From a phage: 64,000 nucleotides of DNA. Shown here piece by piece: positions 3,707-17,200 of this stretch; position 1 is the stretch's first letter, and every line of letters starts with the position of its first letter. The stretch lies in NCBI GenBank assembly GCA_033286805.1, contig GCA_033286805.1_4727.1, one strand, 5' to 3'. The notes under the pieces are model-generated. The model did no database searches, was not told the DNA's origin, and worked only from the letters and a program-made list of their open reading frames with translations. A program made the position numbers and the translations under genes.

Positions 3707-4438
3707 TCACCATTCATACGATCCGGCGCACTGATGCCCCAACAGTACCAACGCGTCGTCTTTGGCCGCCAGATATTTTTCTAACGTTATCCGTGAAACG
3801 GACACATTAGAGAAATCCATCACACCTAAGCGATGATCGTAATGGTTAATTTGCATCCGGTAGTAACCTTTCTTTACCACCAGAAACTCGCCTTGACGCA
3901 ACCATAGCGGAACGTCGCCAACCTCCGCATGGATATAAAACACCGGACATTCTGTCGTAACGGAGTTTTCCTTCCCATCGCTATCTGTAATCTTCCCTTT
4001 GGGAACAGCCGCGATAAAACATTCTCCGATACGCTCGGTTTGATACCCGTTTGGATAGCGCGGATCGTGAAATAACCAATGCTCATCGCTAATATCCACA
4101 TCGGATAATAACGTACGATGTGGACGTAAGGCGATATCAAACGGAACACGATAGATAACGTACCCACCTAACCAATGGGCTAAGTGACCACCGGAATAGT
4201 ACTGCTTGATTGCGGTACTGTATCCGTATATACAACCCATCAAACTGCTAGATACACAGATCCTTGGAAACGATCCGTCTTCCATACGCAAGGTACGTTG
4301 TGGGATACGCGGCATCATCGTTTTCAGTTCGGTATCGGTGCTAATATGCAATAAACCGAAAGGAAGCGTTTTGCTCGGCACCCACGCACAACGTTCCATA
4401 ATCGATCTTGGGACAATAGTCTCGATAGACGATAACAT
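3707..4438 (-). CDS. hypothetical protein (243 aa)
   Basis: Long ORF; 1-nt gap to the upstream gene suggests translational coupling. Confidence 0.5.
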   Translation of the reverse strand: MLSSIETIVPRSIMERCAWVPSKTLPFGLLHISTDTELKTMMPRIPQRTLRMEDGSFPRICVSSSLMGCIYGYSTAIKQYYSGGHLAHWLGGYVIYRVPFDIALRPHRTLLSDVDISDEHWLFHDPRYPNGYQTERIGECFIAAVPKGKITDSDGKENSVTTECPVFYIHAEVGDVPLWLRQGEFLVVKKGYYRMQINHYDHRLGVMDFSNVSVSRITLEKYLAAKDDALVLLGHQCAGSYEW

Positions 4439-4439
4439 A

Positions 4440-5150
4440 TCACCCCCTCAGAATCGCTTCTGTTTCGCTGATCGTATCCGCAGGATAAACCAAACTACTA
4501 TCGATTGCGTTATTCACGTAACCACCCATTAAGTTGGTGATGGTGTTTGTACCACTATCGATGATGTTTCGTAATCCGATATCGATGGCTTTTAACGTGC
4601 TGCGTTCCTCATCCGAAAGCAAACGCCATGCCCGACGACGATCGTTGGGGTCACGCGTGGTGATAGAAGCCAGAACAGAATAGATGCTGCTATCCGCATT
4701 CAGTTTAACGCCTGCCAATTTCGCTGACGTGTAGAGCAGCTGATATTTTTCTTTCTCAGTGTACCACCATGGCACCTTACCGAGCGTATAGATCTCGTTA
4801 TACATCAGCCATGGGAAAGAGTTTCGCATCACGACATCGGTTGACACCAACACCGTGTCACCGGGAAGAAACACAAACTCATAAAACGGCTGGCCATCCA
4901 TGGTAATTTCACGGATGTCAGACGGGTCGATATGGAGCTGGGTCAATGCGTGGCTGACACCATACTGACCATCAGGAAGAATAATCGGGCAGCACGCACA
5001 AACCCGGTTCTCACTCCCGATGATAGATAAACCCAATCCCTCGTAACGGACGGGTGTCAGAATCGAACACCCGCCACGAGTAACAACAGATTTATCTTCT
5101 TGTATGTCCCAGTCCGCAAGCACCGCAGCACCGTTGCGGACAAGCGCCAT
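4440..5150 (-). CDS. hypothetical protein (236 aa)
   Basis: Long ORF, abuts neighbours. Confidence 0.5.
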   Translation of the reverse strand: MALVRNGAAVLADWDIQEDKSVVTRGGCSILTPVRYEGLGLSIIGSENRVCACCPIILPDGQYGVSHALTQLHIDPSDIREITMDGQPFYEFVFLPGDTVLVSTDVVMRNSFPWLMYNEIYTLGKVPWWYTEKEKYQLLYTSAKLAGVKLNADSSIYSVLASITTRDPNDRRRAWRLLSDEERSTLKAIDIGLRNIIDSGTNTITNLMGGYVNNAIDSSLVYPADTISETEAILRG

Positions 5151-6674
5151 TTACACCTCGCTAATCTGGATAACGTAAAGCTGCTGGGCCACGTAATCGG
5201 TGGTCAGATGCATCGTTGCGATGGTCGCCGCTTCGAACACCGTGAGTTCAGGACGTTCACGCATAATCAAATCGATCTCGTCGATGAGACGGTTAACGCC
5301 TTGAGCGTCTTCATGATGCATCGTTTTCACGTAAAGTGTACGGAAATACTGCTGGAAGTTAGCTACGTCGGTATCGGTAAGGTTAGCAACTTCACCACGC
5401 ACAATTTCCATGACCTTCTTACGGGCATCTTCATCGAGGTCGACCGTAATCAGATCAGCGAACACACCCTGCAACGCCAGCGCGTATGCACGTAAGCGGT
5501 TTGCGGCTTGCTGGCTGGCTTTCATGTTGATGTAGTTACGGTAATGCTGCATGAAGCCTGCACCGTTAGCCAACAGTTCATCTTTACTGATGAGTTCACG
5601 CTCTAACAGGACGGCTGCGGTTAACGCTTCCGGTGAACCACCTTCTTGCAGATAACCCATGTAGACGTCTGCGTTAACGAAAATCGTCATCGTTGACGCG
5701 TCTTCAGCACGTTGAATCTGAGAAGCCGACGGTGCAGAAAGAATCAGCTCACCACGCTCCATACGCAGGATACGATCACGACCGACGCGTGCCATCCCGT
5801 TGATCGCCGCAGCACGAGCTTGTTGCATTTTAGCGCGGTAGTTTTCAAGCATCATGTCGTTGCCGTCCTGGATATCTTCCAGCAGGTTAACGGCCCACAT
5901 ATAGCAGAGGAATGCAGGAGTTGCCGCAGCGCGGGAACCGTGGAATGCAACATTATCGCTATCCGGATATGTAATCAGATAAGCGGTGTTGTTCGAAGAA
6001 GGAGCGGAACCACGGAAGAAATAGTTGTAGATGTCTTCCAGTGCCTGATCGCTCATCCCTTCCGTTGCTTGCTGTACAAAACGATCCAGGTTTTCATTAC
6101 CGGTATACAGCAACGTACGCAGCTTATCACCGGTGATAAACGCAAGCTTTCCGGTTGGAGTGAAATCGTTATTAATCGAAATCAAGCCATTGAGGTCATA
6201 ATCGCTAACTAAGGCCTGGTACTCTTCGGAGTTATAAAACTCAGGATAGTAACTCAGACTTACTGTCGGGATCAGTTTCGGTGCCAGGATGATCGAATCG
6301 ATACGTTTTTCCAGTTCCGGGTACAGCGCACGGCATTTCGGCAGGATGGTGTTACGCGCCAACTCTTTGGCGTACACCACTTTTTCCACCACGTCTTGAA
6401 CTGCGGTCTGTAAAACTTCATCGTGGATATAAACCTCGCGTTCGCTGGCAGGTGCTACAGCGCCATCTTCGGTTTCATCAAGTGTTTCAGCAACAACCAT
6501 ACGTTCAGCACTGAGCTGCACCAACGCGTCAGCGTCTTCCGGTGGTTGGTTCCAGTGCATGGTTTCACAAACCGCGGCTAACGGAGTACCTGGAATCGCA
6601 GCGACGATTTGGTTACGTTTGATAAACCCTTCGACAATAGGCTCAACAGCATAAACGGTTTTATTGGTGATCAT
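5151..6674 (-). CDS. hypothetical protein (507 aa)
   Basis: Long ORF; start overlaps the stop of the upstream small ORF (TAATG). Confidence 0.55.
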   Translation of the reverse strand: MITNKTVYAVEPIVEGFIKRNQIVAAIPGTPLAAVCETMHWNQPPEDADALVQLSAERMVVAETLDETEDGAVAPASEREVYIHDEVLQTAVQDVVEKVVYAKELARNTILPKCRALYPELEKRIDSIILAPKLIPTVSLSYYPEFYNSEEYQALVSDYDLNGLISINNDFTPTGKLAFITGDKLRTLLYTGNENLDRFVQQATEGMSDQALEDIYNYFFRGSAPSSNNTAYLITYPDSDNVAFHGSRAAATPAFLCYMWAVNLLEDIQDGNDMMLENYRAKMQQARAAAINGMARVGRDRILRMERGELILSAPSASQIQRAEDASTMTIFVNADVYMGYLQEGGSPEALTAAVLLERELISKDELLANGAGFMQHYRNYINMKASQQAANRLRAYALALQGVFADLITVDLDEDARKKVMEIVRGEVANLTDTDVANFQQYFRTLYVKTMHHEDAQGVNRLIDEIDLIMRERPELTVFEAATIATMHLTTDYVAQQLYVIQISEV

Positions 6675-6907
6675 TACTGCGCTCCCTCCAACGCATTACT
6701 ACCTACGGGTTCTTTGGTTTCCAGACGGCTGTTTAAGCGCGCAGCAACCGCATCTTCCAATCCCAACGGCATAACCTTTTTGTTCACGTCAGGATCGGCG
6801 GCATCATTACCAACGGTTTGACGTACGACCTCAGCAACCAACGTTACCGCGTTCGTCAGCGCAACAAAGCTCGCTGCTCGAGCCGTGTTAAGTTGTTCTT
6901 GGTTCAT
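6674..6907 (-). CDS. small hypothetical protein (77 aa)
   Basis: ORF with stop/start overlap to the 507-aa gene. Confidence 0.4.
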   Translation of the reverse strand: MNQEQLNTARAASFVALTNAVTLVAEVVRQTVGNDAADPDVNKKVMPLGLEDAVAARLNSRLETKEPVGSNALEGAQ

Positions 6908-6982
6908 TCACTTTTCCTTTTAATGTCAGAGCATCGCATTCTTGACGTACGTCAAGAAGGTACTGCGTTCAGCGAAATAAAC

Positions 6983-7008
6983 GAGCAGGGGCATGAAGCC
7001 CCCTGCTC
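6983..7008 (-). terminator. Intrinsic terminator hairpin (GAGCAGGGG...CCCCTGCTC) flanked by T-rich tracts on both strands
   Basis: 9-bp GC-rich stem with 8-nt loop directly after the stop of 7009..8232; GTTTATTTCG follows on the minus strand. Confidence 0.6.
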
Positions 7009-8232
7009 TTATTTGGCGTCGTTAAAATAAATATCAACAGCTCGTTCCGTTGCGTAGAGGAGACCAAGATTCACAGTCCCAACCACTTCCGGTGAACCGA
7101 TGATACGGTTAGCGATACTGGTGCCACTGAAGATAGCATCAAGGGTGTGCCCGTCTTCGGTTTTGTTCACACCATGACCCACGGAAGAGACAACGGATTT
7201 CGCTTGAGCTGCGAAGGTACCTTTATCGCCCATCCCCGCACCAAGGTCGTAACGCATGAAAATACGGATGGCGATCTGGTTCTCGCCTAACGGATTACCG
7301 TCTATTCTCACGTTACTATTATTGATACGCCCCGTAGTTGCTTCGTTGAGTTTCAGTTCCTTAACGCGTTTAGCTCGTGCTTTATCCGCTTCACCGACGA
7401 GCGCCGCCATGGTTTCACTCATATCCTCAATCTGAGCGCGGTACAGTACATCGATCTGTACAACTTCACCATGAACGTCAGCACGTGGGTTATACTGACT
7501 CATACGACGTAATGCTTCAACGGCTTCCTGACTCTCATCACTCAGATCGGTCGCAATCGGTTCTTCCAGTGTTGCAAGGATCGTTCGTGGTTCAACATGA
7601 TCGCCGATTTTCACGAGACCACGAATGTTGAGATGAGCGTCAACAATGAGCGTACGGCTCTTAATCGATGGTGTTACGAGACGATCGGCAAGATTGTCGA
7701 AGATATACGAACTGTCCTCGTGAGTCTCTGGAATATCCAGAATACCGACAAGAGACAGAACACCTGCGCGCCAAACAACCTGACCTGGGTTCCACCAATC
7801 GCGTTTAAAATAAAGACGATGGAAGACCACCACATCCTGATCCTTAACGCGATCCCCGACTTTATAATCGGTAATGAGATCGTGAGGATAATACTTACCT
7901 GGTCCTTTCCCGATTATCGTACCGAGCTGGAAAACCTCTTCCCCTAACTCTGGATCGTCGTATTGTATCGTCAGCGCAGTTTTGGTGACCTTCTTAACAA
8001 CACCGTCACCTTGGGCGGCAGCTGCAAAGAGTTTACCAACACGATGCGCGATGACAGTCTCGCCACCCGTACGCCATGGTTGTACATCGTAACCTTCAGC
8101 AGCAATCATGCGGTTGTGCTGTATACCTATAAATACGAGACGCTTTGGCGAAATCCAGCAAAATACATTTACTGTGCGTCTGGATTGTTCAGATAAGGTC
8201 GTTAATCTTATCCCGGAGGCGATGACAGGCAC
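7009..8232 (-). CDS. Multisubunit RNA polymerase beta-like segment (middle region; probable downstream exon of a split beta gene)
   Basis: IQHNRMIAAEG...VQPW...RTGGETVIAHRVG resembles the bacterial beta HDDANRALMGANMQRQAVP...VGTGME region; MGDKGT...GHGVNK resembles GDKxxGRHGNKG; ORF opens only 3 codons upstream of a GTG. Confidence 0.6.
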   Translation of the reverse strand: MPVIASGIRLTTLSEQSRRTVNVFCWISPKRLVFIGIQHNRMIAAEGYDVQPWRTGGETVIAHRVGKLFAAAAQGDGVVKKVTKTALTIQYDDPELGEEVFQLGTIIGKGPGKYYPHDLITDYKVGDRVKDQDVVVFHRLYFKRDWWNPGQVVWRAGVLSLVGILDIPETHEDSSYIFDNLADRLVTPSIKSRTLIVDAHLNIRGLVKIGDHVEPRTILATLEEPIATDLSDESQEAVEALRRMSQYNPRADVHGEVVQIDVLYRAQIEDMSETMAALVGEADKARAKRVKELKLNEATTGRINNSNVRIDGNPLGENQIAIRIFMRYDLGAGMGDKGTFAAQAKSVVSSVGHGVNKTEDGHTLDAIFSGTSIANRIIGSPEVVGTVNLGLLYATERAVDIYFNDAK

Positions 8233-8609
8233 ACCGCCTCCCGCTTACGTTCTCACGCAAGAGCAGACTATATCACATCTCGTTTCAAACGGTGCTTCTT
8301 CAGCACCTCAACGAGAGTTCACTTCTTCCCAGCGCATCCAGCGCCATTCTCTTATCCAAGGAGAATGCCTCACTCGAGGGGTACCGGGGGATGAATCCCT
8401 TAGTCGTTGAACCTTTACCTTAGAACGCTTCACAGCGATCCTTAGGTACTTGGCTGCGGATTGTCCTTAAGCTATTATCTGTTTTTATAACCATACCGTC
8501 TTTCTTTTCAGAATCCGTTTTGGTCGATAACAGCGATGGATGTCTTCGCAATTCAGTGAATCTCATCTACATGTCGCCACATAGACGGACCCTGCTATTA
8601 AAAGCGTTA
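8231..8609 (-). ncRNA. Group I intron (ORF-less), approximate boundaries
   Basis: Minus-strand reading gives P-like GAAUUGCGAAG (about 8543-8556), Q AAUCCGCAGCCAAGUACCUAAGG (about 8447-8466), R GGUUCAACGACUAAGGG (8394-8414), S GAUAUAGUCUGC (8267-8276), in canonical order with GACUA/UAGUC P7 pairing; stop codon immediately at the putative 5' splice site. Confidence 0.75.
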
Positions 8610-11600
8610 ATCATCTCTGTCGGCAGCAGGTACTGCAAGTGCCGATGTACTCATTATTGACGAGCTACCATCCGTTTTCTCGTCGTAGGGTTTCGTTTCA
8701 CCGTATACAGACACAATGTTTGCGTTAGGTGCGAGGTAAGCAGAAATACCTACGTCCCCACTATCCTTCGTACCTTCGGATACAACACCAATGTCCGACT
8801 TGTCGTATTCACGATCGCGTGCGCGTCGAAGCGATGTCTTTGAACGACCCCCGATACCGGTCATCGTTGCTTCTTCACCCTGCTTGATATCCAACATCGG
8901 GTTGGTTTCATCGATCACGATGGAAGCGCTGTCGTCGAGAATTTGGTTCCAGACGCTTACCGGACTGATTGAGATTTTCTGGCGATTTCCTTGACTGCTG
9001 TTCTCATTCTGACGAATAGCGCCAACCAGATCCTTATACACCAATTCAGCGAACTTATCGTACGTTTTAAAACGTTGGTAGTTCACATCGTTGGTGTTAG
9101 GTGCCCAGTCATCCAGAAGCAGTTCAACAGCACGCAGTAACAACATGGCGAAATCGGTAGGTTCTCCCATGTTCTGTAGCAACGTACGGCTTACCGGATC
9201 AACGAAAAGACGCTCCATGAGTTCAAGTTCGCGTAAATGACGAACCTTAAGTCCAGCACCATCGACAACGTTAAAATAGATATCTCGATTGTCAAAAGCG
9301 CCGCGAGCGTAACCAATGTAGTTACGGTACTCGTTAAACCCACCCAGCAACAACGTCGTCATGCGATCGTCTTTACTGAAAATCAAACTTTCGTCGTCAA
9401 AGCTCACCGCGAATTCATCGGGTGCTAAACCCATACGAGAACCGCGAGGTACCGTACGATAGTTTGCTTTAAGATGTTCTAATAACGGGGTAAGTCCACC
9501 CAGATAACTTAGAACAACACCGACCGGAATACGTACACCCATGAATTCAAGATCGGCAGCTTCGATCGGCATCTTAGCCGCATTGATACCGAAGAAATCG
9601 GGGAACGTCCCTACAGGTGTTGGTGTTTGTCCTGACTGACAGATATAGAGCTGATTGCGTTTATCGATTGCTAAGAATTCACCCAGCGTGTTACGCGCAA
9701 ACGTCAGGAGCCCTTCGGCTAACTGTTCGTTGAACCGATCTTCCCCGATGAACTCCGGCAATGTTTTTATATCGAGACGTATATCCCAATCAGCAAATTG
9801 GATTTGGGTATAGTTGCGTGCAAGCACAGCGAAGTAATACGGGACTTTGACGGCCGGATCAAAGACGTTACCACGTTTTAACGTGGTTAAGGGTGAGGAC
9901 TTATCGTAATACATCGCCGTAAGTTGACGTGTTAGCCAACGACCGGCGTTATTAACGACGCGCTCTGAACGTTTAACAAACACCTTACCGTAGGCGGTAC
10001 TCAACGCAACTTCGGATGACGACACCTTTCTGATAGGTTTATCGACGCGTTGTTTACGCATCCGGTACTTGATGCCGTTAACGACATAAATGCCATCCTT
10101 ACGAACCTTCGGCAACATCACCGGGAACGTGGTTGGGACACCGCCTACAGGAGCCAGTTTAATCGTGATGACTTGATAATCCCCCATCACGTCAACAACG
10201 TCTTCGACTTTATAACCCGTAACAGGGTAACCTGCTTGCTGCACCGCAACAACGGCAGCTGCGATGTCCTTTTGCATCACGTGTTCAACGTAATGTTTAT
10301 CCCACACCGCAAGCGTCGATTTACATAGGCTCTTATCGACGATAACATCCGCTTCCGGCATAACCTTTGCTGGCGCTAATTTCGCGGCTTTTGGTTTAAC
10401 TTCAACATACTCAGCAAGTGTTAATCCAGAACCGTCGGGTGCTTCGATTTCGTGGATAGCGTCAGCATTACGCATCGCTGCTTTATATTGAACGCCGCTT
10501 AACTGACCCGCATCCGCCAGATCGCTCGCGCGCACCAACACCGCATCTGATAACGACTGAATATATTCACCGTGCGTTTTTGGTAACGTTGCCGCGTCAA
10601 AGACATCAACCTTTTCTTCTTCGGTATTGTCGGTAACGACTTCGAAGAGATCGTCAGTAATGTCCTGATCTTCATCGGGTTGGAAATCTGGTTGTACTTC
10701 TACCCCGGGTACTTCACGGACATCTTCGAACGAGCGTTCTACAATGGCGTTCCACGCATCAGCGTCATCGTCTTCATCCGACCCACCAACCAACTCCGCT
10801 TCTAACTCATCGGGATCAAGAACAGTGGCCAGATCCTCACCGTTAGGAAGCACGACGTCGCGATCATCGTACTCCGCATCCGGGCTGTCCGCAAGAATAT
10901 CTCGCTCTTGACGAAGAACCTGTTCCTCTTCTTGTTTCTGTTCTTCTTCATTCGCGCTCTGCGACCACAGACGTGTTACCGCCATCATCCAACGACGCTG
11001 GAAGGTTTCAAGTGTCGTTTTATCGAGTTCTTCCCCTTCCTTAACAAGCCCGGTACGCCATTCCTCCAGTAGACCAAGATTCAACGTAAAGAAGTACACA
11101 CCGTCTGTAAATACAACGTTAAGCTTATCCAGTGTGGCTCTGTCTAACGAAGCCATCGTGCTGTTCTCACGATCGGTTCCCAACCAGCGGAAGAAGTCAA
11201 AGAACGATAGCTCCTCCGGCGTGGCGAAATTCATGAGGTTGTTACGGGTCGGTGCCTGTTGCGTGGTACGCATCAACGAAATCTTCGGCAATGTTGACGG
11301 TATACGGAACAACAGAAAGTGTTGACGATCGCTTTGCTGTGCGATTTCGTTGGCTTTCGACCAAATTGTTTTACGCACGTTGAACCATTCATCATACCAA
11401 CGGGTGAGCGTTGGACGATAAATGTACATGTGGTTAAGATGCGCGTAGTTAGCAACGATCTGAGCGTTGATGTTTTTCTCCACCGCGCTCAGATCGGTAA
11501 CCAAACGAAAACGACGATGTGACGCACGATAATCCAATTTCGCTCGTGGGAGTTGGAATCGTTGATCACGTCGAGGTGCGCCCTGTTTGGTTGCGAGATC

Positions 11601-11816
11601 ATCAGCAAACGAAATCCATAGTTGAGCACTTTCTTTACTCAGCATGTATTCGTTTTCTGGAGGACCTATCAATGAAGGATCCGTTGCGGTGTAATGATAG
11701 ACAGCATAACGCGGCAGCTGCAATAGCTGCACTAAACGTAATCTTGGTGATAGTAGCTCTTGGTAGCGTCTGACACCAAACTGTCGGTAGTAATCAAGGT
11801 ATTTAAGTTTTGCCAT
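8607..11816 (-). CDS. Multisubunit RNA polymerase beta-like subunit, N-terminal portion (1069 aa)
   Basis: C-terminal TGIGGRSKTSLRRARDREYD...GVVSEGTKDSGDVGISAYLA matches the bacterial beta GPGGLTRERAGFEVRDVH...[20 protein letters not shown] region; GGAG RBS before the ATG. Confidence 0.65.
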   Translation of the reverse strand: MAKLKYLDYYRQFGVRRYQELLSPRLRLVQLLQLPRYAVYHYTATDPSLIGPPENEYMLSKESAQLWISFADDLATKQGAPRRDQRFQLPRAKLDYRASHRRFRLVTDLSAVEKNINAQIVANYAHLNHMYIYRPTLTRWYDEWFNVRKTIWSKANEIAQQSDRQHFLLFRIPSTLPKISLMRTTQQAPTRNNLMNFATPEELSFFDFFRWLGTDRENSTMASLDRATLDKLNVVFTDGVYFFTLNLGLLEEWRTGLVKEGEELDKTTLETFQRRWMMAVTRLWSQSANEEEQKQEEEQVLRQERDILADSPDAEYDDRDVVLPNGEDLATVLDPDELEAELVGGSDEDDDADAWNAIVERSFEDVREVPGVEVQPDFQPDEDQDITDDLFEVVTDNTEEEKVDVFDAATLPKTHGEYIQSLSDAVLVRASDLADAGQLSGVQYKAAMRNADAIHEIEAPDGSGLTLAEYVEVKPKAAKLAPAKVMPEADVIVDKSLCKSTLAVWDKHYVEHVMQKDIAAAVVAVQQAGYPVTGYKVEDVVDVMGDYQVITIKLAPVGGVPTTFPVMLPKVRKDGIYVVNGIKYRMRKQRVDKPIRKVSSSEVALSTAYGKVFVKRSERVVNNAGRWLTRQLTAMYYDKSSPLTTLKRGNVFDPAVKVPYYFAVLARNYTQIQFADWDIRLDIKTLPEFIGEDRFNEQLAEGLLTFARNTLGEFLAIDKRNQLYICQSGQTPTPVGTFPDFFGINAAKMPIEAADLEFMGVRIPVGVVLSYLGGLTPLLEHLKANYRTVPRGSRMGLAPDEFAVSFDDESLIFSKDDRMTTLLLGGFNEYRNYIGYARGAFDNRDIYFNVVDGAGLKVRHLRELELMERLFVDPVSRTLLQNMGEPTDFAMLLLRAVELLLDDWAPNTNDVNYQRFKTYDKFAELVYKDLVGAIRQNENSSQGNRQKISISPVSVWNQILDDSASIVIDETNPMLDIKQGEEATMTGIGGRSKTSLRRARDREYDKSDIGVVSEGTKDSGDVGISAYLAPNANIVSVYGETKPYDEKTDGSSSIMSTSALAVPAADRDD

Positions 11817-12494
11817 GGGTTAGGCTCCACGAGGTCCCGTTAAGTTGCGTAATAGGAACGCAACCGTATCGTAACCAATATCGATGTTGAATTTATTTTT
11901 ACCACTTACCCAGAAAGCTCGCTTCTTGTGCGAGTTGGTAATTTCGTCAATAGCTTCCATGGAATAAAGAACGTTAACCGAGACCGTATCACCGTCGAAC
12001 CTTGTCTTCGCCTCAGTTCGCTACGCTGAGACCGCCTGCATGGATACGTACATCACAGGCTGCTTGCACTTTCATGCAAGAGGAGACTATATCAAACCGG
12101 CAGCACAACCTGCTACGGTAACCTACACTTCGAAGACGCTTGTCCTCTACAGGGTGGTAAATCCCTTAGTCGTTGAACCTGCGTTGTTTCACATTCTTGC
12201 AAACAAGAATGCCGTATTACTACGCAACAACCAGGCTGCTGATCGCCCATTGTTTCGCACCTTAGCACCGCTTACGCGGCTTTTCTTTCAGCCTAAGCCT
12301 CTTACGGAGGTAGTGCATCTCAACTGTTGTTTCTGCCTTTCGGCACCTCATGGGTCGTTGAGCTTTAGGGGTTCCCAGCAATTCGTAGGTTTTTCAAGCA
12401 CTCTCTTTCGAGAATACCGGACCAATTCAGTTAGTAAACAACATTATTACCATCCCCCATTCTCAAGGGTTAATTTTTTAAAATGATAGAATTA
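11814..12494 (-). ncRNA. Group I intron (ORF-less, about 680 nt), approximate boundaries
   Basis: Minus-strand P-like AAUUGCUGGGAACC (about 12370-12386), Q AUCAGCAGCC (about 12231-12250), R GGUUCAACGACUAAGGG (12160-12180, identical 21-mer to the other intron), S GAUAUAGUCUC (12085-12094). Confidence 0.7.
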
Positions 12495-13985
12495 ATGTGT
12501 TTTTGGGCTAACTCGAAGATCACCGCCTAAACCGGCGAGGTATGGCGCAGGGACAATAGTAGTTTCTACGAACGAAGCATTAGGTAACCAGTCGGGGTAT
12601 TCCCACGCAATAAATCGCTCGTCCGTTATTGGTTCCCAGTTGCTATCCAATTCGGTTTTCGGTTTTGCAGCGACGGTTGTACGCGCGTAACAGGTTAACG
12701 GAATGACGGATTGCATACCCGATACCGGATAACGTGTTACCATCGCTGCCAGGTTATTCCAGTACTTATATCCGGCAATATAGATAAGCTCGGTGTACGT
12801 GATGGGGTGAACATCCGCGCCGGGTTTATTCAACATCTCTGGGGGTAATTCACTCATACCACGGAACAGTCGAAACGAATCATTGTTCACATAGACAAGA
12901 CAAAGATATCGTCCATTAACCATGATAGGTTCGTTACGCACACCAGGATCGCTTAAGGTGTTCAGTAAACGTTCTATTCCGTCCCATGTTGTAAAGTCAT
13001 CGATGGTGTCTGGATCAAGAGTGACACGTTCACGTTCCATCGTTTCGGTATCGATAAGTTCAACTTCTGTAACATCACGGACAAATATTTCCTGCAAAAT
13101 CCCCGTACGTAACGCGTGTTGTGTTACAGGGAGAGCAGCTTTACTCATCTGGTATAACCCTAACTGAACTGCGGTACAGGAAGGCTGGTTAGGCGACCCT
13201 AGTACCTCCGTTGTGGGGTTAATTGCCGAAATAACGTTACGGGTTGAGTTCCAAACACGACGTGAGCCGAACTTCCCTTGGAAGATCCCTTTCTTACCTT
13301 GGAACATATCCAACAGTAAAGCGTAGATATCGTTGAATGTTCTCTGTAAGCTCCAGCGCTGGCCGTCGTAAACGGGATCGGAATAATCTTTTAATCCATC
13401 AGGGACGGTGTTAGAAATTGCAAGGAAACGACGATACAACTCCGTGATTTCTTGCTCGCTTTCATACCCACCTTCTTTTACTTCTATTTCACGTAAGCCC
13501 GCAGGCAATACCAGTAAGTGACGAGTCATCGCTTTGAACATGTTCTCTTCGACGACTTTAATTCGTAGCTCTCGTTGAGCTGAACCCGTTGAAACGAACT
13601 TGATATCCGCGACGTGTTGTGCAAAGAACCCATATCCTGTTTGTCCTGTTAGCGCATCGGACGCAACGAAGTCGCGTTGTTCAGGATCCCACCGAGCGTA
13701 CGCCTTCCCCGACATGATATCACCATAGAGGTGTTTTAGTCGAATGAGGCGGTCGTAAATGACAGGATGCAGGATTTCAACCTTGCATTCAATCACCGCA
13801 AATCGACGGTCTCGATCTTCACTACCCGCACTACCAAAGATGGTGTAAGAATAGAAACCGTCATCGTGGAAATTACCGGTGCTTGGGTCACGGATGCTCA
13901 TGCTCGTGATCTTGGGAAGAAAACGTAACTGCTGTTTATCGAGGTGTAAAATGCTAATGTTAAACGGCTCTCTGACTTTAGCCAT
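12492..13985 (-). CDS. Multisubunit RNA polymerase beta'-like subunit, N-terminal fragment
   Basis: DGFYSYTIFGS ~ beta' DGLFCARIFGP; FAVIECKVEILHPVIY ~ MGHIELASPTAHIWF; LLVLPAGLRE...ELYRRF ~ VLPPDLRP...LYRRV; GKKGIFQGKFGSRRVWNSTRNVIS ~ [23 protein letters not shown]. Start placed at the ATG at 13985 with AAGAGGAG RBS; ORF track extends to 14027. Confidence 0.7.
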   Translation of the reverse strand: MAKVREPFNISILHLDKQQLRFLPKITSMSIRDPSTGNFHDDGFYSYTIFGSAGSEDRDRRFAVIECKVEILHPVIYDRLIRLKHLYGDIMSGKAYARWDPEQRDFVASDALTGQTGYGFFAQHVADIKFVSTGSAQRELRIKVVEENMFKAMTRHLLVLPAGLREIEVKEGGYESEQEITELYRRFLAISNTVPDGLKDYSDPVYDGQRWSLQRTFNDIYALLLDMFQGKKGIFQGKFGSRRVWNSTRNVISAINPTTEVLGSPNQPSCTAVQLGLYQMSKAALPVTQHALRTGILQEIFVRDVTEVELIDTETMERERVTLDPDTIDDFTTWDGIERLLNTLSDPGVRNEPIMVNGRYLCLVYVNNDSFRLFRGMSELPPEMLNKPGADVHPITYTELIYIAGYKYWNNLAAMVTRYPVSGMQSVIPLTCYARTTVAAKPKTELDSNWEPITDERFIAWEYPDWLPNASFVETTIVPAPYLAGLGGDLRVSPKTH

Positions 13986-14230
13986 GGAGACACTCCTCTT
14001 TACCACCACCGGCTGCGGCGGTATCATCTGAACACACGAGAGACGTAATGGGTGATGGCGTCACCCATCGCTTCCTTGCTTGAGGCGAGGAAGTTATTAG
14101 GTTACGTACCTGCCTGATTTTATCAGGTGGGCGATGTGTGAAGTTACGCTTCAACATTATCAATGCCGAAGGTAAACTTCGTGCATCACGTTCCAACGTA
14201 ACATGGGAACGTATCGAACTGGAGGTATAC

Positions 14231-17200
14231 ATGGTAGATAAAACCCGTGTTGAGGGTGATGATAATTGGGACAACTGGGATGAAGACTTCTCCCTGGATC
14301 TCGATTTTAACGAACCCAAAGACGATCGTAAACCGATAACACGCTTTGCGATAGGAGCGGTTAAAGGTGCTGCTGAGGATCTTACTTCCTACGAAAGAAT
14401 GAAGGAGATCGCCAGAAACGCATTGCCTAAGGGCTACAGCGACGGTATGGATCTTATTGATTCCGCCGTCGGATCCACGAAGGAACTATACAATGAAGCC
14501 GTTCGTGACGTTCTTCCTAAGGTCCAAAGTTCAAAACGGTTAGCCGCACAACTGACCAAGAAATACCGTGCGAGCATGCCCGATTTCTCGAAGAAAATTC
14601 TTGAGCAATGGGAGCGAGAAGCCAAGGAAGAAGACGAACGTAAACAAGCTGAAGAAACCCTTCGTCAACGCATGGCGAGCGCGGGGGACGATGAGATCGC
14701 CCGCAAGGTTGCCGAGGTATTAGGCGAATCAGCAAACCAAAGCGCGGATCAGTTCGCTGAACAGCAAGCGAAAGAGAGTATCCGTGACGATATCGCTGAC
14801 AAACGGTACGCTGTAACCAACAAACAAATGAGTGCGATGCAAGAAGGCGTCGCCAAGATGGTTGGTTTCAACAACGAATTCGCTGCACGCTACATGCGTA
14901 AAAGCCTGGAACTGAAATATCGTTCCTTAGCGATTCAACGTGCAAGTTTTGATCAGCATAAAAAGTTAGCCGAAGTCTATATCGGTTTATTACAAAACAT
15001 CCAGAAGAATACGGCTTTACCTGATGCGGCTAAAGCAAAAATGTCGGAAGAATTCCGCCGTAGCGCGTACCAACGTTTCTTTGGTAATGCGTTAGATGCG
15101 ATGAGTTCTTTCGAGAACCGTTTCTTTGCCGATGTTAAGAAGAACCTCGCCACCAACGCATTAGGTGCTTTAAAAGGCGTCGTGTCCGGCGCAAACGATG
15201 CGTTATACGGTTTAAACGAAGCACGTGACTCGATGTCCATGATGGACGGGATGGGGTCAGAAGGCGATATTAAGGAAATGCAAGGAAAGATGTTGGGTCA
15301 GTTCATTGGCTCAACTGTCGCACCATGGATGGCTAATAAAGGCAGGATGGCGTTACGCGATTTAGCAAAACGTCACCCCAATGCTAAATTCGCTAGCGCG
15401 TTAAAAGCCGTGGATCAAGGTGGTGAGGCCGCCGCTTACACGACGCGTAATCTCGGTAAACTGCTCCAGGAAGATATTCGTAAGAACGAATTCAATCTTA
15501 GCGATCCTTTTTACAAGCAATTGTTACGCGGCGCAGGGCGTTGGGCGTTCAACATGGACAGCGGACGTAACTTCCGCGTGATGAACGACACCGCTGAAAC
15601 ACTGGCGGAGCAAACGTCTTTCGACGGTTTAACCTACCGCAGCATCAACGAGGTTATTCCAGGCTTTCTTGCACGCATTCTGAAAAGCAGTGAAGGCATC
15701 CGCACGGGAAACAGCGATCCTGACTACGAGGTCTATGACGGCATCAGCGGGCAATTCGTGTCTCAGCGCACGCGTGAACAAAGCGTCAATGACACGCTGT
15801 TTAACAAACGTACATTTGGTTATTACGCCAGCCGTTTCAATGAAGTCATCTCGGTCATCGATCCTGATAAGCAATTATCGGATAACGCAAGAAAAGGATT
15901 AGCAAAACAGCTAGCTCGTGACAGCGACGCAAACATTGCATTCGACCCGGCTCGTTTTACAGATGAAAGCAACTTCGATCGTAGTATCGACCGTGACGCT
16001 ATTAAGGAACTTTCTAATTACTTCCGTAACCGTTACGGTATCGACTACGTACCCGATGAAAAAGGACAACGCCATCAGGTCATTGGAAACCGCGGGCAAT
16101 ATTACACGGAACGTAACCGAGCGGATCTTCGCTACGGAAATCTGAAATCGTTACAACCGGATATCCAGCGTAACCTTAACCTACTGAAACGCACTGGTGA
16201 CGTCCAATATCTGGAACGTATTGGTATTGTAACGAGAAATAGCGACGGAAGTTACTCGGTTAATCACGATCGGTATTTCTCTGAAATCGATCGGTACATC
16301 GACCGACCGGAGTACGCTGACCGCGGCGATGTTAATACGCGATTAACCGCTCAGGAAACAAGAGCGCTGGCGCTGGGTTATCGTGACGCAAAACCGTCAG
16401 CTGGCGACGTCCAAAATGCGGGTCTGCCGAACATCGACCGTAAGGCTGCTGGAACAGTAACCATTGATGAAAACATCGGTTACGATAAATGGTGGAACGA
16501 CACAGGTGTTATCACCACATCGCTCGAAGAACAGAATCGAGCGTGGCAAGAACTTTATCTCGAAGCGTTGTCCGAAGCATCCGAACAACGTGTCGAAATG
16601 CTTGCGTTGCTGAAAGCCATTTCTGAGAAAGACTGGTCTAATAACGTTTCGCTGGATGGCGAAGATGTACCTGAAGGTACGGCACCCATTTCATTTATCG
16701 ATCGTGCCAAACAAAAACTCGGCACACGCAACCTCTTTAAAGGTGGTCGTAATCTCCTCTGGAAAGGAATTAAAAATACCGCACGTTTGGGTGTTAAAGG
16801 CGCGCGCTGGGGTGCAGAACGCACGTTGGGTAGTTTGGTAAATTCTGGCCGACGCATTATCAATTTCAACCGCTTCGTGTTCGGCGCATTATCCAAGGTC
16901 GATCAGGTTCCGTTTGACATTTACGTTAAAGGGGAATCCCAACCACGCATACTGGCTGCCAAACTTCGTCAGGGGTTATACTTCGACGAAGCGACAGGAA
17001 AAGCCGTAAAACGGATGAAGGATATCAAAGGCCCACTCGTTGATGCGGATGGAAACATCGTAATCAGCAACGAGGATATCGAGAAAGGGTTGGTCACTCG
17101 CGCTGGTCGTGCCTTTGATAATTCAGGACTTAAAGCATGGGCACGTGAAGGTCTTAATGGAATAACGACGGTATTAAGTCTCCCACGGATGTTAAAACGC

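Follow-up and report, generated by a model that had tools for sequence, protein, structure and literature searches.

Two group I introns lie 3.8 kb apart and in the same orientation within one RNA polymerase locus of a phage, and an identical stretch of 21 nucleotides (nt) occurs in both. Is one of them a recent copy of the other, or did the two arrive separately? The locus belongs to the phage contig GCA_033286805.1_4727.1 (NCBI GenBank assembly GCA_033286805.1), analysed here as a stretch of 64,000 nt that we call the window. The window belongs to a Goslar-like jumbo phage that infects E. coli and forms a nucleus; in this region it is ~96% identical to Goslar (Escherichia phage vB_EcoM_Goslar, a nucleus-forming jumbo phage). 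The initial annotation of the locus had noticed both introns and suggested intron duplication or repeated homing, along with a possible deletion by recombination between the copies. Our analysis points to a different history. With high probability, the two elements are independent, td-like self-splicing group I introns, each inserted inside the active-site motif of one of two adjacent virion RNA polymerase genes.

Two introns interrupt the catalytic motifs of adjacent polymerase genes

The locus is read from the minus strand and consists of a gene for a beta'-like RNA polymerase subunit, followed by the adjacent gene for a beta-like subunit. The beta'-like gene is a homologue of Goslar gp205, PhiPA3 gp212 and phiKZ gp180, and the beta-like gene is a homologue of Goslar gp207, PhiPA3 gp211/209 and phiKZ gp178. 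Of these, phiKZ gp178 serves as beta subunit in the polymerase that is packaged into the virion (PMC11620839). Two minus-strand matches to the Rfam group I intron model RF00028 exceed its gathering score of 50, one at 8244-8611 (55.3 bits) and one at 12063-12447 (56.5 bits). Both cover the full model (positions 1-253), and they are the sole Rfam matches within the 64 kb, in agreement with the initial placement of two group I introns in one RNA polymerase gene cluster. The element in the beta-like gene is termed intron A and the one in the beta'-like gene intron B (Table 1).

The ends of the Rfam matches were rejected as intron ends, as the 3' ends run 63-95 nt further, through P9.1/P9.2, and the 5' end of B lies 71 nt further out. 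The boundaries could be fixed because phages of ~96% identity hold intron-free alleles at both sites. Intron B splits the beta'-like catalytic motif LGGD/FDGD (a slash marks the junction), and intron A splits the beta-like motif DRDD/PKR just past two conserved aspartates. In intron-free homologues, the beta'-like protein has the sequence ...LG(A/G)D-FDGDT... and the beta-like protein ...DD-(P/G)KR.... Among close relatives (Table 2), the sequence ...LGGD FDGD... is uninterrupted in L012 and L020, and ...DRDD GKR... in Goslar, L016, L017, L018 and L020; exactly 461 nt are missing at site A in Goslar and the four other genomes. The distant intron-free homologues PhiPA3 gp212, KTN4, Eowyn and pEa_SNUABM_54 agree with the same boundaries. 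PYLAG/FDGD, a first guess at the B junction that had served as a tblastn query, was discarded, since the homologues give LGGD/FDGD.

Exact removal of the introns restores a continuous, conserved reading frame, as judged from the empty alleles and the distant homologues. Positions 4000-17000 of the window without both introns, and the Goslar locus without its 2,044-nt intron, are each 12,021 nt long and collinear, and the spliced beta-like gene measures 4,347 nt in both phages. At either site the 5' exon ends in U (...GAU) and the intron terminates in G. The predicted spliced junctions are ...GGCGGUGAU/UUCGACGGU... for B and ...AGAGAUGAU/CCAAAGCGU... for A (GGUGAU/UUCGAC and GAUGAU/CCAAAG in the RNA). 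A and B are new group I introns, in a class of genes, those of jumbo-phage virion RNA polymerases, from which introns are already known.

The shared 21-mer and the ribozyme core

The 21-mer AATCCCTTAGTCGTTGAACCT (plus strand) occurs exactly twice in the window, as the initial annotation had stated, and was absent from dinucleotide-preserving shuffles. The second element that it had named as common, an S core with the sequence GACTATATCA, likewise has exact matches at 8266-8275 and 12085-12094. The recent paralogy drawn from these elements did not survive the pairwise alignment that had been proposed as its check. Aligned globally, A and B are 44% identical, no more than shuffled sequence (47 ± 1.3%), and significance is confined to two blocks, the 21-mer itself and a 23-mer with 91% identity. 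The Rfam alignment identifies the two as the R and S elements of the core (J6/7-P7-P7.1 and P7'-P9). No similarity extends past this universal core, as it would in recent duplicates. A mean column identity of 69%, returned by MAFFT for the two regions, is meaningless for two sequences and was replaced by the shuffle-tested global alignment.

The 21-mer is also present outside this locus. The intron of Vibrio phage pir03 contains it without any mismatch, and the PhiPA3 intron matches 18 of its 21 bases, including an identical run of 15. The three bases that differ in PhiPA3 belong to the P7.1 stem and have changed together with their partners (GGG..CCC to CCG..CGG). Because similarity outside the core is at the level of shuffled sequence, and because the 21-mer recurs in the pir03 intron, A and B do not appear to be recent duplicates. 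The common 21-mer is best read as the conserved ribozyme core around the guanosine-binding helix P7, a resemblance at the level of the family; selection for ribozyme function would keep it identical in both introns.

It had been suggested that recombination between the two copies could delete a "beta exon". The DNA between the introns is in fact composed of the last beta'-like exon and the first beta-like exon. A crossover in the 21-mer, which is formally possible, would delete 3,766 bp, comprising the FDGD exon, all of beta-like exon 1 (~1,069 codons) and parts of both introns. In the resulting hybrid intron, the P3 5' strand of B (AACCU) would face the P3 3' strand of A (GUGAA), and, as read from the Rfam alignment, the two are unable to pair. 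The crossover product is very likely lethal, because catalytic exons of an essential virion enzyme would be lost and P3 broken. A length of 21 bp is at or below the minimum for efficient homologous recombination in E. coli (~23-27 bp), and a 21-mer-mediated deletion is absent from all ten related genomes described below. Such a deletion could arise as a rare defective by-product, without an evident biological role.

Independent assortment of the introns among Goslar-like genomes

The allele set comprises ten Goslar-like genomes, the window included, collected from viral and metagenome scans. An exact-pattern scan with a conserved 29-mer of exon 1 matched Goslar only, and a protein-based locus search was used instead. 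The search for alleles in related phages that the initial annotation had recommended proved productive, as intron-less and intron-containing alleles exist at both sites (Table 2). Empty, ORF-less and endonuclease-carrying states (ORF, open reading frame) are all represented at each of them. Introns A and B assort independently among the ten genomes, since the states of site A and site B combine freely. The coexistence of all three states at both sites in such close genomes resembles the cyclical model of homing attributed to Goddard and Burt, which runs from gain through decay of the endonuclease to loss.

Table 2 Intron alleles at the two sites in ten Goslar-like genomes
Genome	Site B (beta'-like gene)	Site A (beta-like gene)
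window	519 nt, ORF-less	461 nt, ORF-less
Goslar	2,044 nt, HNH ORF	empty
L012	empty	1,583 nt, HNH ORF
L014	510 nt, ORF-less	461 nt, ORF-less
L015	2,016 nt, HNH ORF	contig ends
L016	2,077 nt, HNH ORF	empty
L017	546 nt, ORF-less	empty
L018	462 nt, ORF-less	empty
L019	2,015 nt, HNH ORF	503 nt, ORF-less
L020	empty	empty

A homing footprint around intron A

The exons flanking intron A diverge strongly from those of phages that lack it. From -360 to +60 nt of site A, the mismatch to Goslar is 15.7%, compared with 3.3% elsewhere in the gene (p = 8e-22), and within 30 nt of the junction it reaches ~30% relative to this intron-free allele. On the exon 1 side the divergence declines over 200-390 nt, and on the exon 2 side it breaks off at about +21 to +30 nt. 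The flanks read AADRDD/PKRLVFIG in all four genomes with intron A and AVDRDD/GKRLVFVG in all five with an empty site. These nine genomes allow 126 possible 4-versus-5 partitions. Grouping them by whether intron A is present yields 25 fixed differences, as compared with 5 for the next best split, and 20 of the 25 cluster around the site, from -84 to +21 nt. The divergent flank is strictly linked to the presence of intron A, which indicates co-conversion and gives A one of the marks of a mobile intron. Intron A would have come from a divergent donor, through homing or recombination, and carried ~100-400 nt of adjoining exon along.

Near the junction of site B, only two positions are fixed between the states: -1, which is U in all alleles with intron B and C in both empty ones, and +3. 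Having U at -1 in the intron-B alleles is consistent with a required U.G wobble at the 5' splice site. Directly upstream of site B, the terminal 30 nt of beta'-like exon 1 (12519-12548) are unusually variable, with 3-9 pairwise differences per 30 nt among the window, Goslar, L012 and L014. These changes are mostly synonymous, with one A-to-Q replacement; in exon 2, almost nothing varies over the initial 200 nt. The variability may stem from several short events of co-conversion, or from an evolving recognition site of the endonuclease.

Endonucleases are absent from the window introns and present in relatives

The initial annotation was right that neither window intron contains an endonuclease ORF, the other mark of a mobile intron. 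The longest sense-strand ORFs inside them are 48 and 45 amino acids (aa) long, and six small intron ORFs, counted on either strand, gave no Pfam match. Its description of the internal frames as antisense throughout has to be corrected, since some of the small ORFs are sense; the introns themselves lie on the minus strand. A tblastn search of the window introns with three related intron endonucleases returned only a 37-aa stretch overlapping the ribozyme 5' core, and the same three queries gave no convincing match anywhere in the window to a free-standing endonuclease able to mobilise the introns in trans. Loop L1 of window intron B was compared with the endonuclease genes of Goslar and L015 and their leader by blastn and by global alignment; no remnant came to light, and with it no trace of a simple deletion history.

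The endonucleases that are lacking here are found at both sites in relatives. The Goslar copy of intron B encodes gp206, a protein of 490 aa with HNH_3 and NUMOD1 domains, and L1 of intron B in Goslar, L015, L016 and L019 holds an HNH endonuclease ORF of 490-494 aa. At site A, intron A of the metagenomic phage L012 contains a 403-aa ORF, in which NUMOD1 is significant and HNH_3 and the I-TevI DNA-binding domain are sub-threshold. Since this ORF is 36% identical to PhiPA3 gp210 (E = 1e-55) and only 27% identical to Goslar gp206, the two sites host different lineages of HNH endonucleases. HNH_3/NUMOD1 domains are common to all three proteins. A and B would thus be separate mobile elements, each with its own nicking-type HNH/NUMOD1 endonuclease in L1 of relatives, and their ORF-less forms would stem from loss of the endonuclease gene or predate its arrival. 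Repeated homing, as originally suggested, is retained in the sense of two independent invasions by different mobile introns, and in no other sense.

Three further observations concern intron A of L012 (12900-14482 in that genome). A 13-bp inverted repeat, UUGUAAACAGAAU / AUUCUGUUUACAA, closes its endonuclease ORF, and the 3' end of the ORF reaches ~230 nt into the ribozyme core (P1'-P6). Compared with L012, the ORF-less alleles of intron A are ~79% identical over the 5' 140 nt and 91-94% identical over the 3' 320 nt.

Predicted structure of the ribozymes

The full secondary structure was assembled from the Rfam alignment and local hairpins. Both introns contain the core elements GUUCAACGACUA and GAUAUAGUCU (R and S), in which GACUA pairs with UAGUC and forms P7. 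P7 is followed by two hairpins (P7.1/P7.2) in A, B, PhiPA3 and pir03, and P9.1 and P9.2 were found with compensatory changes. Pairing in P2, P6, P7.1 and P9.1 is kept through two-sided changes across alleles and relatives. The layout of P7.1/P7.2 with P9-P9.1-P9.2 is one that we take to be of the T4 td type.

Minimum-free-energy folds place the same P1 in all alleles of A and B, where GAU and the first intron base pair with GGUC or UGUC directly upstream of P2. For both window introns, the exon-end U is predicted to pair with a G of the guide, and the intron ends in G. Splicing would use this short P1, formed by the exon end ...GAU and the conserved GGUC guide just upstream of P2. After P1, an allele-specific stem P1a closes a variable loop or ORF; its length is ~10 bp in the Goslar and L015 alleles and 13 bp in that of L012, and in window intron B it has 6 bp with additional pairs. 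The endonuclease genes are located in L1, because the P1/P1a stems close around them.

A 32-nt segment of intron A, TCCGGGATAAGATTAACGACCTTATCTGAACA, covers the P9.2 hairpin with its flanks and is 100% identical to the T-even td intron, with matches in ~226 phage records. The rest of intron A is not detectably td-like, with the exception of a 15-nt S element. Functional constraint alone is no obvious explanation of the 32-nt identity, because the P9.2 hairpin is also found in PhiPA3 and pir03 with different stem sequences. An exchange of intron modules between unrelated coliphages is possible.

Origin of the two introns

Several points weigh against independent, td-like self-splicing introns at this locus. 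The placement in a td-like subgroup IA would follow from the hairpin layout as compared with that of td, not from a classifier, and the capacity of A and B to splice themselves is predicted from sequence. The P1 helices are short, with 4-5 bp. Long-range pairs proposed by RNAalifold for four A-type and four B-type introns were not credible and were set aside, the P3/P7 pseudoknot being involved and pir03 and PhiPA3 being misaligned. Lastly, L1 of window intron B resembles that of no other allele, neither the Goslar and L015 types nor the short hairpin type seen in L014, L017 and L018.

On a deeper time scale, independent arrival is compatible with an ancient common ancestry. A single td-like family may have spread to several "...GAU/" sites in the RNA polymerase genes of jumbo phages, for example by GGUC-guided reverse splicing, and then diverged. 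We hold this to be a reasonable possibility, though not the probable course of events. The GAU/GGUC form of P1 is common to A, B and PhiPA3; the location of the endonuclease in L1 and the layout of P7.1/P7.2 with P9-P9.1-P9.2 are found throughout; both endonucleases have the HNH_3 and NUMOD1 architecture; and pir03 has features of both introns. However, similarity is too low to support a specific origin beyond a broad structural class, and convergence on GAU sites could reflect aspartate-rich active-site motifs favoured by homing endonucleases.

A recent duplication, in which one intron was copied or ectopically homed into the neighbouring polymerase gene so that A and B are young paralogues, is very unlikely. 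It would account for the identical 21-mer, the 23-mer, the common orientation at a short distance and the like P1 logic (exon GAU with GGUC). Yet beyond the two core blocks nothing rises above shuffled sequence, and the 21-mer is identical in a Vibrio phage. Each intron also aligns better with other introns than with its neighbour: the local alignment score of A with B is 46, barely above that of the 21-mer itself, whereas A scores 78 with pir03, 64 with td and 57 with PhiPA3, and B scores 64 with pir03. Furthermore, the endonucleases at the two sites in relatives are only 27% identical, and the introns occur independently in the ten genomes.

The two remaining alternatives are weaker still. 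Intron A could be limited to its 368-nt Rfam match, with the next 93-96 nt coding for an in-frame insertion of ~32 residues (SGGGVPVIASGIRL...WIS), and the open frame from 8243 to 8148, a U before 8610 and a G at 8244 would permit such an in-frame splice (derived by hand); this is most improbable, as the five close genomes lack exactly 461 nt and not 368, no homologue has the insertion, and the 3' segment folds as P9.1/P9.2, shows compensatory changes between alleles and contains the td-identical 32-mer. That A and B are decaying relics unable to splice, in polymerase pseudogenes, is hardly credible either: the endonuclease gene is missing and window intron B scores below its Goslar copy (67.7 bits), but both genes are intact in every other respect and evolve under purifying selection (with 164 synonymous against 18 non-synonymous codon differences from Goslar across the beta-like gene), the residues of the split motifs are catalytic ones, in a virion polymerase that infection requires (PMC11620839), both model matches are full-length and above the gathering score with pairing maintained, and the lower score of B results from a shorter P8 loop that L018 has as well.

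Annotation of the locus

Table 1 Coordinates of the introns, exons and sequence elements in the window
Feature	Position	Strand	Description
Intron A	8149-8609 (461 nt)	-	group I, without endonuclease ORF; starts UAACGC, ends ...GGAUUUCG (terminal G)
Intron B	12000-12518 (519 nt)	-	group I, without endonuclease ORF; starts CUUCGAG, ends ...GACAAGG (terminal G)
Beta'-like gene, exon 1	12519..14027	-	ends ...PAPYLAGLGGD; from ORF list, intron-free homologues and the uninterrupted L012 and L020 alleles
Beta'-like gene, exon 2	11820..11999	-	59 codons and stop; starts FDGDTVSVNVLYS (catalytic metal-binding motif)
Beta-like gene, exon 1	8610..11816	-	ends ...AADRDD
Beta-like gene, exon 2	7009..8148	-	starts PKRLVFIGIQHNRM; protein PKRLVFIGIQ from 8148
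21-mer copy in intron A	8394..8414	-	structural position same as in intron B
21-mer copy in intron B	12160..12180	-	RNA sense AGGUUCAACGACUAAGGGAUU; P6 3' side, J6/7, P7 5' strand, start of P7.1
Intron-A-linked haplotype, exon 1 side	8610..8693	-	putative co-conversion tract; divergence raised to about -390 nt
Intron-A-linked haplotype, exon 2 side	8128..8148	-	abrupt end at about +21 to +30 nt
Internal guide sequence, intron A (predicted)	8588..8591	-	GGUC; pairs with exon GAU and U (P1)
Internal guide sequence, intron B (predicted)	12420..12423	-	GGUC; pairs with exon GAU and first intron base, U-1.G wobble
td-identical segment of intron A	8186..8217	-	32 nt, intron A positions 393-424; P9.2 hairpin and flanks
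Variable L1 of intron B	12424..12518	-	95 nt, AT-rich

The exon structure bears on existing records. The 59-codon exon with the FDGD motif (7360-7539 in the Goslar sequence L001) is unannotated in the Goslar records, in which gp205 is annotated as ending in intron read-through, and the Goslar intron annotation spans the Rfam core alone, without the true intron ends. In the window, ORF callers would divide the beta-like gene into pieces of 1069 aa and 407 aa with false ends. Elsewhere in the window, a strong inverted repeat, ACCTCCTTACCCA CA TGGGTAAGGAGGT, lies right after a stop codon at 2638-2664; it has the appearance of a terminator-type hairpin and is conserved in L011.

Relation to known introns and significance

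Counterparts of the two introns are known from other phages. The PhiPA3 gp210 intron interrupts the beta-subunit gene gp211/gp209 of the virion RNA polymerase (Birkholz et al. 2024, Science; PMC11620839). It occupies the same site as window intron A, with ...DD/PKR aligned to ...DD/(M)KR of PhiPA3, and has the same P1 logic and P9.2 hairpin architecture; a gp210 homologue resides in L1 of L012 intron A. Unlike the PhiPA3 intron, window intron A has no endonuclease gene, belongs to a phage of E. coli and not of Pseudomonas, is only weakly similar in its ribozyme and has one additional 3' hairpin ahead of the splice site. Window intron A is the ORF-less Goslar-lineage counterpart of the PhiPA3 gp210 intron, which has been studied by experiment. 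The Goslar intron (HOV27_gs002, "Intron_gpI") is the orthologue of window intron B, at the same site and with a ribozyme core of 96-98% identity. The two differ in that the Goslar copy carries its HNH_3/NUMOD1 ORF in L1 and a P8 loop 49 nt longer, whereas window intron B has an unrelated L1 of 95 nt.

The T4/T-even td intron resembles window intron A in the hairpin layout after P7 and in the identical 32-nt and 15-nt segments. It interrupts a different gene in an unrelated phage family, and the remainder of its sequence has no detectable similarity. Its endonuclease, I-TevI, is a GIY-YIG enzyme and is not in L1. The beta' gene intron of Vibrio phage vB_pir03 is comparable to B in its position (NAD/FDGD), in the identical 21-mer and in a td-like P9.2 loop, AUUAACGAC. 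It differs from B in its length of ~1.3 kb (L009 2911-4233), in the small fragmented ORFs of its 5' part and in its divergent host and polymerase gene. With boundaries taken from the protein motif only, the -1 base of the pir03 intron is C and not U, which is unusual.

A full-text literature search returned no paper on the Goslar intron, its site or its polymorphism, and "Goslar" and "group I intron" occurred together only in a general review. The value of the locus lies in the natural polymorphism of two loci and in the corrected annotations (the FDGD exon of Goslar gp205 and the split beta-like gene), and not in the 21-mer. Goslar-like phages of E. coli are naturally polymorphic at two sites, the PhiPA3 site and the beta' DFDGD motif, and their natural genotypes provide a tractable set for the study of homing, immunity and competition in a nucleus-forming E. 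coli phage.

In jumbo phages, group I introns that carry an HNH endonuclease within genes of the virion RNA polymerase have recently been shown to serve as weapons between co-infecting phages, as used by PhiPA3 against PhiKZ (PMC11620839). It is conceivable, though on balance doubtful, that the ORF-less introns and the exon haplotype linked to intron A are kept as immunity alleles against the HNH endonucleases of co-infecting relatives, free of the cost of an endonuclease. The enzymes concerned would be of the Goslar gp206 type at site B and of the L012/PhiPA3-gp210 type at site A. If so, Goslar-like E. coli phages would offer a ready-made two-locus system for intron-mediated interference competition, as in the pair PhiPA3/PhiKZ. 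The 32-nt identity with td, should it reflect exchange, would mean that nucleus-forming phages have swapped intron modules with unrelated coliphages.

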